DNA of 64,000 bases from Escherichia phage vB_EcoM_JB75, in the sequence record MH355584.1; one strand, given 5' to 3'. Below are positions 118-52,670 of this stretch, piece after piece. Position 1 is the stretch's first letter. Every line of letters starts with the position of its first letter. The notes below the pieces were generated by a model. It was not told the origin of the DNA and ran no database searches. It was given only the letters and a program-made list of their open reading frames with translations. The translations under genes were made by a program, and so were the position numbers.

Positions 118-190
118 TGGGAATTAGCCAAGTTGGTAAGGCATAGCACTTTGACTGCTAGATGCAAAGGTTCGAGTCCTTTATTCCCAG
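118..190 (+). tRNA. tRNA-Gln (anticodon UUG)
   Basis: Cloverleaf: 7-bp acceptor stem TGGGAAT/ATTCCCA, anticodon loop CUUUGAC, T-loop GGTTCGAGTCC; no encoded CCA. Confidence 0.85.
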
Positions 191-191
191 C

Positions 192-278
192 GCGAGAATG
201 GTCAAATTGGTAAAGGCACAGCACTTAAAATGCTGCGGAATGATTTCCTTGTGGGTTCGAGTCCCACTTCTCGCACCA
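192..278 (+). tRNA. tRNA-Leu (anticodon UAA), long variable arm
   Basis: Acceptor GCGAGAA/TTCTCGC, anticodon stem CAGCA/TGCTG with loop CUUAAAA, encoded CCA. Confidence 0.85.
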
Positions 279-283
279 AATTT

Positions 284-357
<74 letters not shown>

Positions 358-367
358 ATTTAATTTA

Positions 368-441
368 CTCCGTGTAGCTCAGTTTGGTAGAGCGTCTGCT
401 TTGGGAGCAGAATGTCGTAGGTTCAAATCCTGCCACGGAGA
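368..441 (+). tRNA. tRNA-Pro (anticodon UGG)
   Basis: Acceptor CTCCGTG/CACGGAG, anticodon loop UUUGGGA, T-loop GGTTCAAATCC; no encoded CCA. Confidence 0.85.
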
Positions 442-443
442 CT

Positions 444-533
444 GGAGGCGTGGCAGAGTGGTTTAATGCACCGGTCTTGAAAACCGGCAGTCGCTCCGGC
501 GACTCATAGGTTCAAATCCTATCGCCTCCGCCA
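444..533 (+). tRNA. tRNA-Ser (anticodon UGA), long variable arm
   Basis: Acceptor GGAGGCG/CGCCTCC, anticodon stem CCGGT/ACCGG with loop CUUGAAA, encoded CCA. Confidence 0.85.
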
Positions 534-538
534 GTTTT

Positions 539-614
539 GCTGATTTAGCTCAGTAGGTAGAGCACCTCACTTGTAATGAGGACGTCGGCGGTTCGATTCC
601 GTCAATCAGCACCA
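539..614 (+). tRNA. tRNA-Thr (anticodon UGU)
   Basis: Acceptor GCTGATT/AATCAGC, anticodon loop CUUGUAA, T-loop GGTTCGATTCC, encoded CCA. Confidence 0.85.
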
Positions 615-615
615 A

Positions 616-690
616 GGCCCTGTAGCTGGAAGGTTCAAGCAAGCGACTCATAATCGCCAGATGGTGGTTCAATTCCACCCAGGGCCACCA
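616..690 (+). tRNA. tRNA with CAU anticodon (Ile2-type AUA reader by analogy to T4 tRNA-Ile; Met not excluded)
   Basis: Acceptor GGCCCTG/CAGGGCC, anticodon loop CUCAUAA, encoded CCA; identity of CAU tRNAs cannot be decided from sequence alone. Confidence 0.75.
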
Positions 691-703
691 AATTAAGAAT
701 TAA

Positions 704-790
704 GGGGAGTTATCCCGTAGAGGTAGCGGTGTGGACTGTAAATCCATTGTCATTGCGACTCGGGTGGTTCGACTCCATCACTCCCCACCA
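704..790 (+). tRNA. tRNA-Tyr (anticodon GUA), long variable arm
   Basis: Acceptor GGGGAGT/ACTCCCC, anticodon loop CUGUAAA, T-loop GGTTCGACTCC, encoded CCA. Confidence 0.75.
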
Positions 791-794
791 ATTT

Positions 795-869
795 GGATGT
801 GTAGCTCAGTGGTAGAGCAGTTGACTGTTAATCAATTGGTCCATGGTTCGAATCCATGCATGTCCGCCA
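795..869 (+). tRNA. tRNA-Asn (anticodon GUU)
   Basis: Acceptor GGATGTG/CATGTCC (two G-U pairs), D-arm TAGCTCAGTGGTAGAGCA, anticodon loop CUGUUAA, encoded CCA. Confidence 0.75.
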
Positions 870-873
870 AATA

Positions 874-949
874 CGAGGCATAGCTCAGAAGGAAGAGCAA
901 GGACCTTCTAAGTCCTGGGTCGTAGGTTCGATCCCTACTGCCTCGACCA
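874..949 (+). tRNA. tRNA-Arg (anticodon UCU)
   Basis: Acceptor CGAGGCA/TGCCTCG, anticodon stem AGGAC/GTCCT with loop CUUCUAA, encoded CCA. Confidence 0.85.
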
Positions 950-1054
950 GACAAGAAGCCGGGTCGCTACCGGCAAGTCGTCGGACTGATGTTCCCTGTT
1001 TAAGGACTGGTATTAATAAATCTTTATGTTTTGTTAATGTCCCCTTATATCACA

Positions 1055-1216
1055 GCAGAAACGGCGCACCGAATTATCGATTCGAGGAAATATCTTTGCC
1101 GTAAGCCGAGTAGCGTTTTTGACGGAACGTTCGGATATGGTCGAGATATGGCCTTTTAAAAATATTGAGTAGCGTCAACTGCTTAATAACCGGGTTCGAA
1201 TCCCGGCGTTTCGTAC
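1055..1216 (+). ncRNA. Putative small stable RNA with tRNA-like T-arm (compare T4 species 1/2 RNAs downstream of the tRNA cluster)
   Basis: Non-coding stretch after tRNA-Arg with CCGGGTTCGAATCCCGG T-arm-like hairpin at about 1190-1208 and partially paired ends; boundaries approximate. Confidence 0.25.
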
Positions 1217-1262: not shown

Positions 1263-1296
1263 CTTAGCCCCGACCGAAAGGTTGGGGCTTTTTAGT
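1263..1296 (+). repeat. 34-bp direct repeat copy 1 (contains terminator hairpin)
   Basis: CTTAGCCCCGACCGAAAGGTTGGGGCTTTTTAGT, identical to 1818-1851. Confidence 0.9.
1266..1295 (+). terminator. Rho-independent terminator
   Basis: GC-rich stem AGCCCCGACC / GGTTGGGGCT, GAAA loop, T-run. Confidence 0.7.
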
Positions 1297-1303
1297 ATAA
1301 ATA
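1296..1303 (+). promoter_or_regulatory. T4-type late promoter TATAAATA
   Basis: Exact TATAAATA 37 nt upstream of the Ip-type gene start (1340). Confidence 0.5.
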
Positions 1304-1339
1304 AGTATATTAAAACCCCGAATTAAAACAGGAAATAAG

Positions 1340-1813
1340 ATGAAATCATATGCTCAATTTTTAAATGAAGCGGTGTTAAATGAAGCATCTAGCACCGAAA
1401 TTCAAGCTGTCGCAAAAGCAGCCATTGCAGCGGGTAAATATTCCTATAAAGATGCTTCTGACGAATCACGATTCCAATTTGCTCGCGACATGAAAGCAGA
1501 AGGATTTACGGGAAATGCAGTTAGTATGGCCTGGAAAAGTCTAGTTGCTACTGGCGCTGCTTTTGCAAAGGCTTCGGGTAAACCTGCTCCTAAAGCAGAT
1601 CCTAAAGCGGCACAAGAAAAAAATATCGTTAAAGGAATTATCGCTAAATATGAAGCTATCCTTAAAGAGCTTTTAGTAATCAAAACCGAAGGCCAAAAGT
1701 TAGCCCGTGCTTATAGTTTCAAAGATAATCCACATGTTCACTCTCTTGAGTATGTTGAAGACATCCAAAAAATTATTAAAGACCGCATTTGGTCTGCTAA
1801 ACAAATCAAATGA
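1340..1813 (+). CDS. Internal protein (Ip-type), N-terminal capsid-targeting sequence
   Basis: 157 aa; N-terminus MKSYAQFLNEA resembles the T4 IPI/II/III targeting sequence MKTYQEFIAE cut by the prohead protease; RBS AGGAAA. Confidence 0.7.
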   Translation: MKSYAQFLNEAVLNEASSTEIQAVAKAAIAAGKYSYKDASDESRFQFARDMKAEGFTGNAVSMAWKSLVATGAAFAKASGKPAPKADPKAAQEKNIVKGIIAKYEAILKELLVIKTEGQKLARAYSFKDNPHVHSLEYVEDIQKIIKDRIWSAKQIK

Positions 1814-1817
1814 CATT

Positions 1818-1851
1818 CTTAGCCCCGACCGAAAGGTTGGGGCTTTTTAGT
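1818..1851 (+). repeat. 34-bp direct repeat copy 2 (contains terminator hairpin)
   Basis: Perfect copy of 1263-1296. Confidence 0.9.
1821..1850 (+). terminator. Rho-independent terminator
   Basis: Same hairpin plus T-run as at 1266-1295. Confidence 0.7.
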
Positions 1852-1938
1852 TTGAATCACATAGAGAATGCTGCTACGGATAGTAACAAAGTAATAAATA
1901 ATTAATAACCAACCGATAAATTATTTCAAGGATTTTAA

Positions 1939-2502
1939 ATGAAAACCTATGCCGAATTTTTAACCGAAGCAGCAAAATTACCATCTGAAGCAGATCTTAC
2001 TAAAGTATTCTTCCAATTGGACCCAAAAGACCGCGGCGATTTTCTTAAGTGGAAAGCTAAAGCTATTGAAATGTACAACATCGATAATAGTTCTTTTACA
2101 ATGAGTCAAGAAAATAAATTCAATAAAGCATTTTTCAAAATTTCTAAGAAATTGGCATCTGGCGCTCAGGTTCCTAAATCTGTGTTAGCTACTCCTGAAC
2201 GCGCACCTGTTAAAATTTCTAAGAATATGTTCGACACTAAAAAATACGTTAATGCTTTGAATAAAGCTCTTGATGCATTGGATGATGCAAAGAAGGCAGC
2301 CCGCGATCTTCAAGACGTGTACACCGATTTTGACCGCAAAACTAAAGGTTCTATTTCAAATAGCGAACGCAATAGTGTAAGTGTTTATTCTGATAGCCTT
2401 GATGTTCTTGGCGATGCGTATACTGAAATTAAAAATCGTATTAACACTGCATCTAAGCTAAAAGCTGCTGCAGAAGCTATAATAACTAAACTAGGTAAAT
2501 AA
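1939..2502 (+). CDS. Internal protein (Ip-type), N-terminal capsid-targeting sequence
   Basis: 187 aa; N-terminus MKTYAEFLTEAA; lysine-rich. Confidence 0.7.
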   Translation: MKTYAEFLTEAAKLPSEADLTKVFFQLDPKDRGDFLKWKAKAIEMYNIDNSSFTMSQENKFNKAFFKISKKLASGAQVPKSVLATPERAPVKISKNMFDTKKYVNALNKALDALDDAKKAARDLQDVYTDFDRKTKGSISNSERNSVSVYSDSLDVLGDAYTEIKNRINTASKLKAAAEAIITKLGK

Positions 2503-2510
2503 TTTTAAAT

Positions 2511-2535
2511 CCCTATCTAAATGATAGGGCTTTTT
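2511..2535 (+). terminator. Rho-independent terminator
   Basis: Stem CCCTATC / GATAGGG followed by T-run. Confidence 0.6.
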
Positions 2536-2627: not shown

Positions 2628-2734
2628 TAGAATTCCCTAAAAATTTTTTCACAAAACTGTTTACATCTCTGTTCTTCCATGGTACTATACAACTATCAAC
2701 TACTGATACAGAAAACAACTTGGAGAATGAAATG
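2628..2734 (+). repeat. Promoter/5'UTR cassette copy A (near-identical to 45532-45631)
   Basis: About 100 nt shared, including early promoter, leader and RBS GGAGAATGAAATG. Confidence 0.85.
2659..2688 (+). promoter_or_regulatory. T4-type early promoter (sigma70-like)
   Basis: -35 GTTTAC, 18-bp spacer, -10 TACTAT, upstream A/T tract. Confidence 0.7.
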
Positions 2735-2995
2735 GATAATTACGGCGAACTGTTCAACTTCTTTATGAAATGCGTTTCAGAAGATTTCGGTCGTACAGTG
2801 AATGATATTAAAGTTATCGGTCCTGAACATCCGATGTTTGAAACTTACGCAGTAATGGGTAATGAAGACGGTCAGTGGTATACTGTAAAGGTTGTGATTA
2901 ACATGTTCACTGCTGAAAGTTATGTTAAACTGTCTTCTAAAGTTTACCATGATAACGACGAAATCGCTGAAGAATATTTCAATAATATGAAATAA
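2732..2995 (+). CDS. Hypothetical protein (87 aa)
   Basis: ORF-track frame 2612..2995 trimmed to the ATG after RBS GGAGA; the upstream part of the track ORF is the promoter. Confidence 0.55.
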   Translation: MDNYGELFNFFMKCVSEDFGRTVNDIKVIGPEHPMFETYAVMGNEDGQWYTVKVVINMFTAESYVKLSSKVYHDNDEIAEEYFNNMK

Positions 2996-3051
2996 GTTTA
3001 CATAGGTTCATGATTGAGATATTATGAGCCTATACAAATGAGGAAAACATT

Positions 3052-3387
3052 ATGAAACGTAACTTTAGTAAAGCTTTTTGTAATAGAAATAATTATCCTG
3101 AAGAGCTTTTTGAATCTAAGGACTTTAAAGAGTTTAACGAACGTTCTCAAAACATGCCTGTACAATGGGTGTTAGATTATGCCAAACGTATCTTTGAAGG
3201 CGTGCGGGATATTTGTCCTGATGATGAAGCTCCTTATTTTAAAAAGGCTTGGGAACTCGCCAACCAAGCATATATCAATGCTTTAGAATCTTCTAAAGGT
3301 ACTGACGATGATTTTATTTTATTGGCTATCAATGATGCCGTTATCGAGGCCATTGACGTCTTTATCGATGAGCTAGACGAAGAATAA
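3052..3387 (+). CDS. Hypothetical acidic protein (111 aa)
   Basis: ORF with RBS GAGGAAA; acidic C-terminus. Confidence 0.55.
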   Translation: MKRNFSKAFCNRNNYPEELFESKDFKEFNERSQNMPVQWVLDYAKRIFEGVRDICPDDEAPYFKKAWELANQAYINALESSKGTDDDFILLAINDAVIEAIDVFIDELDEE

Positions 3388-3443
3388 GTTTACAATCTAT
3401 TAAAACGTGATATTATCTAATTATACCAACCTAAGGAAATACT

Positions 3444-6939: not shown

Positions 6940-7413
6940 ATGAAAACATATCAAGAATTTATCACTGAAGCAGCTATTAATTCTCAAATTATTGCTGAAT
7001 CTTTTACTGATCTTTTGAAATTTAAAAAAGGTCAAAAAATTACTGCTGTATTGGATGATGGTACAGAAGTTGAGATGGATGTACAGGGATATAATTATGC
7101 AGTAGATGGAAAACTGTATAATAAATCTCATGCTAAATTTGATTCATTTGACGACTTTGTTAATACAGTTGAAGATGAAAAAACTCGTCGATCCATTGCA
7201 ACTGGTGATGCTAAGGTTCTTATGGCACATGGTCATGAACGCATTCGCGCTAAACAGAATAAAATGGGTGAAGATAATTTTGCATTAGTTGGTTATCAAT
7301 CTGGTAAACAAACTTATGGCTATCAACGTACTGCTACAATGTATAATAAAAATGGTAAAATTGCCTTTGTAAATAGTAAAGGTTCTATTCAGTACGTTAA
7401 ATCGTTCAAATAA
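6940..7413 (+). CDS. Internal protein (Ip-type), N-terminal capsid-targeting sequence
   Basis: 157 aa; N-terminus MKTYQEFITEAA; sits where T4 has ipIII, downstream of e. Confidence 0.7.
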   Translation: MKTYQEFITEAAINSQIIAESFTDLLKFKKGQKITAVLDDGTEVEMDVQGYNYAVDGKLYNKSHAKFDSFDDFVNTVEDEKTRRSIATGDAKVLMAHGHERIRAKQNKMGEDNFALVGYQSGKQTYGYQRTATMYNKNGKIAFVNSKGSIQYVKSFK

Positions 7414-52505: not shown

Positions 52506-52670
52506 ATGAAAACATATAAAGAATTTATTAAAGAAGATATGGTCGCTGGAGATTCAGGTGGTAATCCTGAAAATATCTCTACTGGAACAACGTCAGGTGC
52601 TGTAGTAAATAAAGGTCCTGAACAGATTCCTAAAAAGAAAAAAGAGGAATCTAAAGAAAAAGAAGAGTAA
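52506..52670 (+). CDS. Small protein with capsid-targeting-like N-terminus (54 aa; T4 61.1 position)
   Basis: N-terminus MKTYKEFIKE resembles the Ip targeting sequence; rest is Gly/Ser/Lys-rich low complexity; RBS AGAGG. Confidence 0.5.
   Translation: MKTYKEFIKEDMVAGDSGGNPENISTGTTSGAVVNKGPEQIPKKKKEESKEKEE

Follow-up and report, generated by a model that had tools for sequence, protein, structure and literature searches.

Between the rnaC and e.8 genes of Escherichia phage vB_EcoM_JB75 (sequence record MH355584.1), a perfect 34-bp direct repeat of a terminator-like hairpin brackets a small open reading frame (ORF) of internal-protein (Ip) type, and a second gene with a similar leader follows it. 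The whole stretch that was analyzed, 64,000 nucleotides long, is called the window here; it belongs to a Tequatrovirus (T4-like) genome and is oriented in reverse relative to the T4 map. We consider that the interval between rnaC and e.8 is an old variable site holding terminator-bounded late cassettes, in which a copied terminator of the tRNA operon both insulates the genes and offers homology for recombination, and we give this reading a probability of about 0.72. In this model, the site would hold zero, one, or two units, each consisting of a late promoter, a gene with a capsid-targeting leader, and an intrinsic terminator.

The repeated hairpin and the two cassettes

The 34-mer CTTAGCCCCGACCGAAAGGTTGGGGCTTTTTAGT occurs on the plus strand at 1263-1296 and 1818-1851 with no mismatch between the copies, as the initial annotation had reported, and the copies bracket the ORF at 1340-1813 (ORF1) together with the late promoter motif TATAAATA at 1296-1303. 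No further match with up to 3 mismatches was found in the 64-kb window, and 100 dinucleotide shuffles gave 0 matches. A repeat search extended the copies to 40 nt (1263-1302 and 1818-1857), of which 38 are identical, and added a third copy, 65% alike, at 2505-2544, so that the spacings are 555 and 687 bp. The two differences in the 40-nt repeat turn TATAAATA, which follows copy 1, into TTTGAATC, which follows copy 2. Since the similarity continues through these two motifs, the duplicated unit would have consisted of the terminator and the late promoter, and the second promoter would since have decayed.

The predicted fold of either copy is a 10-bp stem, 7 of whose pairs are G-C, capped by a GAAA loop and followed by TTTTT (-20.3 kcal/mol, z = -5.2), and both copies were picked up by a terminator scan. 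This element, here called termA, is thus a GC-rich stem-loop directly followed by a T run, as in intrinsic (Rho-independent) terminators. When 16 distinct variants from related phages were compared, 91% of the stem cells were paired, and two stem pairs had changed in a compensatory manner, from C-G to G-C in the Dhakavirus variant and from C-G to U-A in ESh30. The covariation score of the stem was matched by 0 of 500 shuffles, and every slid-register control scored lower, in what is a small sample of 16 variants. Because the pairing is kept across the variants, selection acts on the structure of the hairpin itself, in keeping with an intrinsic terminator.

The same hairpin is found as a single copy in T4 and T6, at the same position after rnaC (about 50 nt past rnaC in T4). 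In T4 the e.8 flank comes next, which marks copy 1 as the predicted resident terminator of the tRNA/rnaD/rnaC operon and T4 as an empty site. Copy 2 would then be a duplicate of the resident termA and its neighboring late promoter, and would end cassette 1. The region of copy 2 is annotated as a terminator in fPS-90, and terminator features stand there in other records too, all of them annotators' predictions. A predicted late promoter is likewise annotated in fPS-90 at the position equivalent to TATAAATA, and in the window the TATAAATA motif after termA copy 1 forms the sole composite of a terminator and a late promoter. Just 5' of copy 1, at 1239-1258, the stretch CCCCGACAAGGTTGCCG resembles the hairpin core CCCCGACCGAAAGGTTGGGG, with 7 + 7 bases in common; it is also present in T4, and may be a decayed extra copy of the hairpin or a chance likeness.

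Cassette 2 carries ORF2 and ends at a weaker predicted terminator, termB, which has only GGGCTTTTT in common with termA. After termB comes the flank GGTATCTAGG, which in T4 lies directly 3' of termA; the sequence that follows termA in T4, GGTATCTAAGCC, is found after the third hairpin in the window. The variant late-promoter-like motif AATAAATA upstream of ORF2 is also present at this position in fPS-90 and phiE142, and a promoter scan detected no sigma-70-type promoter in 1852-1938. The features of the site and of its neighbors are summarized in Table 1.

Table 1. Positions of the features of the rnaC-e.8 site and its neighbors in the window (a slash in a leader marks the predicted cleavage site)
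Feature	Position	Strand	Remarks
Ten tRNA genes (Gln, Leu, Gly, Pro, Ser, Thr, Met, Tyr, Asn, Arg)	118..949	+	ARAGORN, Rfam
rnaD homologue	954-1070	+	blastn against annotated T4 rnaD, 85% identity
rnaC homologue	1077-1215	+	blastn against annotated T4 rnaC, 98.6% identity
termA copy 1, predicted terminator of the tRNA/rnaD/rnaC operon	1263..1296 (hairpin 1266-1289, T run 1289-1293)	+	Repeat, fold, terminator scan
T4-type late promoter motif TATAAATA	1296..1303	+	2 nt past the T run, 37 nt before the ORF1 start codon
Cassette 1, carrying ORF1	1297-1851		
ORF1, 157 aa, candidate internal (injected) head protein, phrog_2280	1340..1813	+	Leader MKSYAQFLNE/A
termA copy 2, predicted terminator, ends cassette 1	1818..1851	+	Identical to copy 1, then TTTGAATC; repeat, terminator scan
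Cassette 2, carrying ORF2	1852-2535		
Variant late-promoter-like motif AATAAATA, weak call	1893..1900	+	39 nt before the ORF2 start codon
ORF2, 187 aa, second candidate internal protein, phrog_2280	1939..2502	+	Leader MKTYAEFLTE/A
termB, predicted terminator CCCTATCTAAATGATAGGGCTTTTT, ends cassette 2	2511..2535	+	-10.4 kcal/mol, weaker than termA
e.8 homologue, conserved right-hand neighbor of the variable site	2732-2995	+	97.7% identity to T4 e.8

Four alleles of the site in related phages

The junctions in 16 genomes revealed four alleles in public Tevenvirinae: empty, ORF1 only, ORF2 only, and both. In the empty allele, rnaC and termA lead directly into the e.8 flank (T4 and T6, and T2 by junction-probe match only). 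The ORF1-only allele runs from termA through the late promoter and ORF1 to a second termA and the e.8 flank (JK38, KNP5, PE37, teqhad, Sf22, and others), and the ORF2-only allele runs from termA into AGTTTGAATC, ORF2, termB, and the e.8 flank (RB14 and LF73P3). The both-cassette allele has the layout of the window, and was also found in fPS-90, ZN18, Pu-Krd-SF3, and phiE142. All the junctions lie immediately 3' of GGGGCTTTTT of termA or of GGGCTTTTT of termB, i.e., at a terminator end of the form GGG(G)CTTTTT. The initial annotation had proposed a comparison of related T-even genomes, and this comparison recovered empty sites as well as cassette-bearing alleles, so that its picture of a terminator-gene-terminator cassette was borne out. 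Recombination between the two 34-bp copies of the window would give exactly the ORF2-only junction of RB14 and LF73P3, and the single-terminator site of T4, T2, and T6 is what an equivalent event would leave behind in an ORF1-only phage. By parsimony, these three phages are more likely to have lost their cassette content than to have kept an ancestral empty site.

To count the alleles, we used 90-base junction probes with a coverage of at least 80%, and the counts are of records, with RefSeq/GenBank duplicates included. The empty junction was found in about 63 records, T2 among them, and the ORF1-termA-e.8 junction in 276. The ORF1-termA-ORF2 junction was matched in 115 records, and the two-copy layout was present in about 115-127 phage records. 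For the ORF2-only junction, one-piece matches numbered at least 18, those in RB14 and LF73P3 and in no fewer than 16 other records. DNA of the ORF1 cassette occurred in 494 records and that of the ORF2 cassette in 164. The junction probes matched about 1.2-1.3 places per record, i.e., the hairpin family is confined to this locus. The exact 34-mer was found in only two contigs of IMG/VR, a collection that is poor in T4-like genomes.

Some relatives carry further arrangements. In Dhakavirus-type alleles, those of JS98 type included, and in the Tequatrovirus GRNsp7, the hairpin family bounds a leaderless gene of 184 aa (MKLLKYLSW..., phrog_2143), whose hydrophobic N-terminus suggests a membrane protein. 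In Dhakavirus, this gene is bracketed by the variant hairpin GGCCCTTCCGAAAGGTTGGGCC, and whether it precedes or follows the leader-bearing gene differs from phage to phage; in some phages, a small extra hairpin, AGCCCCGTCTGGGGC, lies between the two. ESCO10 and GRNsp7 each mix hairpin variants typical of two different genera, and a hairpin variant seems to travel along with its cassette. In Yersinia phage fHe-Yen9-01 (stretch L013, 2348-3572), two tandem phrog_2280-like genes with the variant leaders MLQYNEFLKE and MLEYSEFLKE follow a terminator and TATAAATA, and the flanking hairpins are unrelated to termA; the site with its layout therefore seems to predate the termA repeat. Finally, in BYEP02 (OR757454.1; stretch L031, 1478-1597), 81 bp comprising the rnaC 3' tail and termA are duplicated in tandem, which gives this genome three copies of termA, two of which are spaced by 81 bp; this is either a further rearrangement at the hairpin or an assembly error.

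Candidate internal proteins encoded by the cassettes

The leader of ORF1, MKSYAQFLNE/A, can be compared with that of T4 IPIII, MKTYQEFIAE/A, and has Y4, F7, L8, and E10. In the IPIII leader, residues 4 and 7 are needed for targeting and residues 8 and 10 for gp21 processing, with an L/I-x-E cleavage site (PMC9026906); suitable residues at all four positions and the cleavage site are present in both ORF1 and ORF2. The predicted mature products are small and basic, as internal proteins are (ORF1, 16.0 kDa, isoelectric point 9.5; ORF2, 19.7 kDa, isoelectric point 9.5). The label "Ip-type" that the initial annotation had given to ORF1 therefore fits its sequence. The two proteins are only 25% identical, yet they belong to the same PHROG (phrog_2280), and hhalign aligned the profiles of their families end to end (probability 93%, E = 2.7e-7), which suggests that they are old, distant paralogues.

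Beyond the leader, sequence comparison revealed no likeness of ORF1 or ORF2 to T4 IPI, IPII, or IPIII. The AlphaFold2 model of ORF1 is all-helical, with a predicted local distance difference test score of 71 and a predicted template modeling score of 0.42, and a Foldseek search of the PDB with this model returned no hit at E < 2. A Pfam search with both proteins yielded nothing usable, the only hit being a sub-threshold match of ORF2 to cytochrome b562. In protein databases, every homologue of ORF1 is named "hypothetical protein." Most likely, the products of ORF1 and ORF2 would be packaged in the head, where the prohead protease would remove the leader up to Glu10, and would enter the host together with the DNA. 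If they act like T4 Ip1-3, the injected products may block host defenses, e.g., GmrSD-type restriction.

ORF1 is split or truncated in ESh30 (stretch L027, 1644-2114) and ECO4 (stretch L028, 1644-1982), where it is annotated as two fragments or as 112 aa, which may reflect either gene decay in some lineages or sequencing error. Two other genes with such leaders occur in the window. One, at 6940-7413 on the plus strand, encodes 157 aa with the leader MKTYQEFITE/A (phrog_3155, "internal virion protein") and lies after the lysozyme gene e, in the position of ipIII in T4; its product is unlike IPIII, and it is preceded by an early-type promoter-like GTTTAC...TAGTAT and not by a terminator and late promoter. 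The other, at 52506-52670 on the plus strand, is a 54-aa ORF with the leader-like MKTYKEFIKED and a highly charged tail (phrog_1823, function unknown), far from any Ip locus.

Age of the arrangement and alternative explanations

From these comparisons of sequence, the two-copy arrangement is old and still polymorphic, and not recent. The initial annotation had regarded the locus as recently rearranged; on such a view, cassette 1 would have been inserted or duplicated recently in this lineage, and the 34/34 identity of the copies would be a fresh scar; the second copy that is off by one base in many ORF1-only genomes can be cited for the same view. However, a 34-bp tract is too short for dating, with about 1 difference expected at 3% divergence, and in fPS-90, ZN18, and one IMG/VR contig the 31-nt core is exact in both copies while the ORF1 cassettes differ from that of the window by 1.5-3%. 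The layout is, moreover, common to the 115-127 or so records counted above. Among genomes with this layout, the DNA of ORF2 is 94-100% identical to that of the window, whereas the identity of the ORF1 cassette falls to 73-78% in Pu-Krd-SF3 and phiE142. Compared with these two phages, the identity is 95-100% up to termA copy 1, 50-62% immediately past it, and at least 88% again by termA copy 2; the divergent block is sharp at its left edge only, and the identity recovers gradually over the 3' half of ORF1. The ORF1 allele has been exchanged here, and the ORF2 cassette stayed in place. Homologues of ORF1 are flanked by related hairpins in Dhakavirus and Mosigvirus, the ORF1 allele types cross genus lines, and all the compared genomes that differ from the window in cassette content are also 2-10% different in the flanks. 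A recent event is thus very improbable. The initial annotation had itself named the finding that would speak for an old arrangement, namely the same two copies in all relatives, with diverged flanks; an old layout with diverged alleles was indeed found, but not all relatives carry both copies.

Three further possibilities were examined and set aside. A recent deletion of ORF1 linking LF73P3 to LF73P1, which is a near-twin of the window, was ruled out by flanks that are 3-10% diverged. An assembly artefact was ruled out by the presence of the layout in >100 independently sequenced genomes. Concerted evolution of the two copies within genomes is unsupported in general, given the many ORF1-only genomes whose copies differ at a loop base and the mixed hairpin variants of ESCO10 and GRNsp7.

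The main alternative is function alone: an efficient terminator would have been copied and kept by selection with no special role in recombination, and the alleles would go back to a few old illegitimate events and have spread via the rnaC and e.8 flanks, possibly with the help of co-conversion from the cut of the SegB homing endonuclease in the nearby tRNA region. This is consistent with the covariation of the stem, which indicates selection on the hairpin itself, and explains why imperfect copies are frequent, the copies not being kept identical across genomes. It also agrees with flanks that are 92-98% identical over hundreds of bases, with the homing endonuclease gene in the tRNA cluster of T4, T6, fPS-90, ESh30, GRNsp7, and Pu-Krd-SF3, and with the identity of just 9-10 bp at the termA/termB junction. 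Nevertheless, we consider it unlikely, because the identity of the copies covers bases outside the stem (CTTA and AGT) and the decayed promoter, which argues for copying by duplication and not for convergence. In addition, the identity drops exactly at termA copy 1 and the junctions of the four alleles all fall at the T run, which would be unexpected if breakpoints were spread over the flanks, and the 81-bp tandem duplication in BYEP02 ends at termA. Hairpin-forming direct repeats that bound single-gene cassettes, in an order that varies between phages, would also suit a dedicated mobile element, in which the hairpins are recognition sites of a specific recombinase or nuclease, as are integron attC sites or transposon ends. 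However, neither the site nor its surroundings contain a gene for a recombinase, integrase, or transposase, the neighbors being tRNA genes, rnaC/rnaD, and e.8-e.6; the hairpin family occurs at this locus only; and the hairpin with its T run has the complete anatomy of an intrinsic terminator. There is accordingly little chance that the site is an element of this kind.

We therefore prefer the reading of an old variable site in which the copied terminator has two roles. At the RNA level, the sequence and the covariation of the stem suggest that the hairpins would stop the tRNA-operon and late transcripts and so insulate each gene. At the DNA level, the junctions suggest that the hairpins would provide short homology for phage recombination, or for replication misalignment, through which cassettes would be deleted, duplicated, or swapped. 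T4 forms deletions between short direct repeats, and its recombination is less frequent below about 50 bp of homology. In one set of T4 deletions, GGGC/GCCC motifs are reported at the ends of about half (Mosig 1998, as cited in PMC2839356), and the 9-10 bp junction between termA and termB recalls these endpoints. The duplication in BYEP02, if it is not an assembly error, would be a further rearrangement at the hairpin.

Several points weigh against this reading. The pattern of the junctions marks where past events ended, and neither their frequency nor their direction, and existing alleles can be passed on through ordinary recombination within rnaC and e.8, conserved flanks of ample length, for which the terminators are not needed. 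The right end of cassette 2 has only 9-10 bp (GGGCTTTTT) in common with termA, which is microhomology and no real repeat, and in many ORF1-only genomes the second copy is imperfect, its loop being changed from GAAA to AAAA, so that the copies are not generally kept identical. The allele counts include duplicate records, and the ORF2-only probe also joined some two-piece matches. As for the cargo, ORF1 has no fold match, and phrog_2280 is listed under "unknown function" and not annotated as an internal protein. Lastly, terminator activity, late transcription, and the packaging and injection of the ORF1 and ORF2 products are predictions from the sequence.

Setting of the site in the genome

At 950-2700, the window shares 99.5% identity with Tequatrovirus LF73P1, and some part of this region is matched by 735 phage records. 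The tRNA genes are in the same order as in the T4 tRNA region, the rnaD and rnaC homologues are the final genes of the tRNA operon in the window, and e.8 is followed by homologues of T4 e.7 and then e.6. The region 3' of e.8 (2996-3443) is itself variable: e.7 (3052-3387) is present in the window and in T4 and is absent from fPS-90, and other phages have a 54-58-aa ORF in this stretch. The tRNA cluster varies as well. In the window, it includes tRNA genes for Tyr and Asn and lacks a homing endonuclease gene. In T4, the Ile (CAU-anticodon) tRNA gene is separated from the Arg tRNA gene by segB, and fPS-90 has a homing endonuclease gene at this place too; some relatives have an additional His tRNA gene.

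Comparison with known systems and implications

The repeat is a late-promoter version of the gene shuffling by promoter/stem-loop linkers that has already been described for T4-type phages. At the Ip loci of T-even phages, promoter/stem-loop repeats flank the internal-protein genes and have been proposed to mediate their shuffling (Repoila 1994, as reported in PMC2839356, PMC4122927, Rao & Black 2010, and Silas 2025). As far as these loci are described in the later accounts, our site resembles them in that it has genes with a capsid-targeting leader of about 10 residues, whose number, order, and identity vary between phages, and a short conserved stem-loop repeat on both sides of each gene. 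It differs in location: the Repoila-type loci are at ipI or ipII/ipIII (on the T4 map, ipI is beyond trna.4 and ipIII/ipII are beyond e), whereas this site lies between rnaC and e.8, is not among the "two Ip loci" named in the 2010 and 2025 papers, and is empty in T4, T2, and T6. The elements of the Ip loci, according to the same accounts, carry early promoters and weaker, AT-rich stem-loops, and the flanking elements annotated at the ipI locus of fPS-90 are indeed early promoters; here, in contrast, a strong, GC-rich predicted terminator with a GAAA loop is combined with a late promoter. The genes themselves resemble those of T4 internal proteins in the leader (Y4, F7, L/I8, and E10, then Ala), in their small, basic products, and in the late promoter motif upstream, and differ in having no sequence similarity past the leader. 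In our literature search, the site was nowhere described as an Ip locus; Repoila 1994 and Comeau 2007 (Virology) were outside the reach of this search, and an earlier description is possible.

A second comparison is with the promoter-early stem-loops (PeSLs) of RB49/phi1, PST/T4, and nt-1/KVP40 (Arbiol 2010, PMC2839356; Comeau 2014, PMC4122927). Like the PeSLs, the repeat contains a stem-loop terminator and, together with a promoter, links small non-essential genes in a hyperplastic region, where the cassettes would be transcriptionally insulated. Also as with RB49 ORF192 (PMC2839356), a variable gene between two linkers in one phage corresponds to a single linker in relatives that lack the gene (T4 and T6). 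Unlike the PeSLs, it has the late TATAAATA motif in place of a sigma-70-like early promoter, no sigma-70-type site being found on the plus strand in 1263-1340 or 1818-1938, and the terminator precedes the promoter without overlapping it. The repeat family is also restricted to a single locus and not dispersed through the genome, with two copies in 64 kb at up to 3 mismatches. The cassettes are further comparable to the morons of lambdoid phages, in which a single accessory gene with its own promoter and terminator lies between resident genes; however, morons are not thought to move via conserved flanking sequences (PMC2839356), and here a repeated terminator marks every junction.

Each of T4 Ip1, Ip2, and Ip3 inhibits a GmrSD-type restriction enzyme of its own, and the field speaks of "two Ip loci" (PMC12373910). 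We tentatively suggest, as a possibility that we favor less than its opposite, that the rnaC-e.8 site may be a third hotspot of injected-protein genes, which would have escaped notice because the laboratory phages T4, T2, and T6 carry no cassette there. The linker would then serve as a landing pad for the gain, loss, and inter-genus exchange of cassettes, and the cargo (ORF1, ORF2, and a 205-aa relative in JS98) would be new packaged anti-defense proteins, e.g., against GmrSD enzymes beyond those met by Ip1-3. What this study adds is modest: an apparent third locus of leader-bearing genes, its full allele series, and two unannotated families of candidate injected anti-defense proteins. In annotation, the homologues of ORF1 and ORF2, which are "hypothetical proteins" in hundreds of records, could be given the label of candidate internal protein. 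With its base-exact junctions, the natural set of four alleles is a clean case for measuring repeat-driven gene gain and loss in T4-type phages. Because the site holds leader-bearing genes in most sequenced Tequatrovirus genomes and none in T4, T2, and T6, these genes are candidates for a role in host range or anti-defense.

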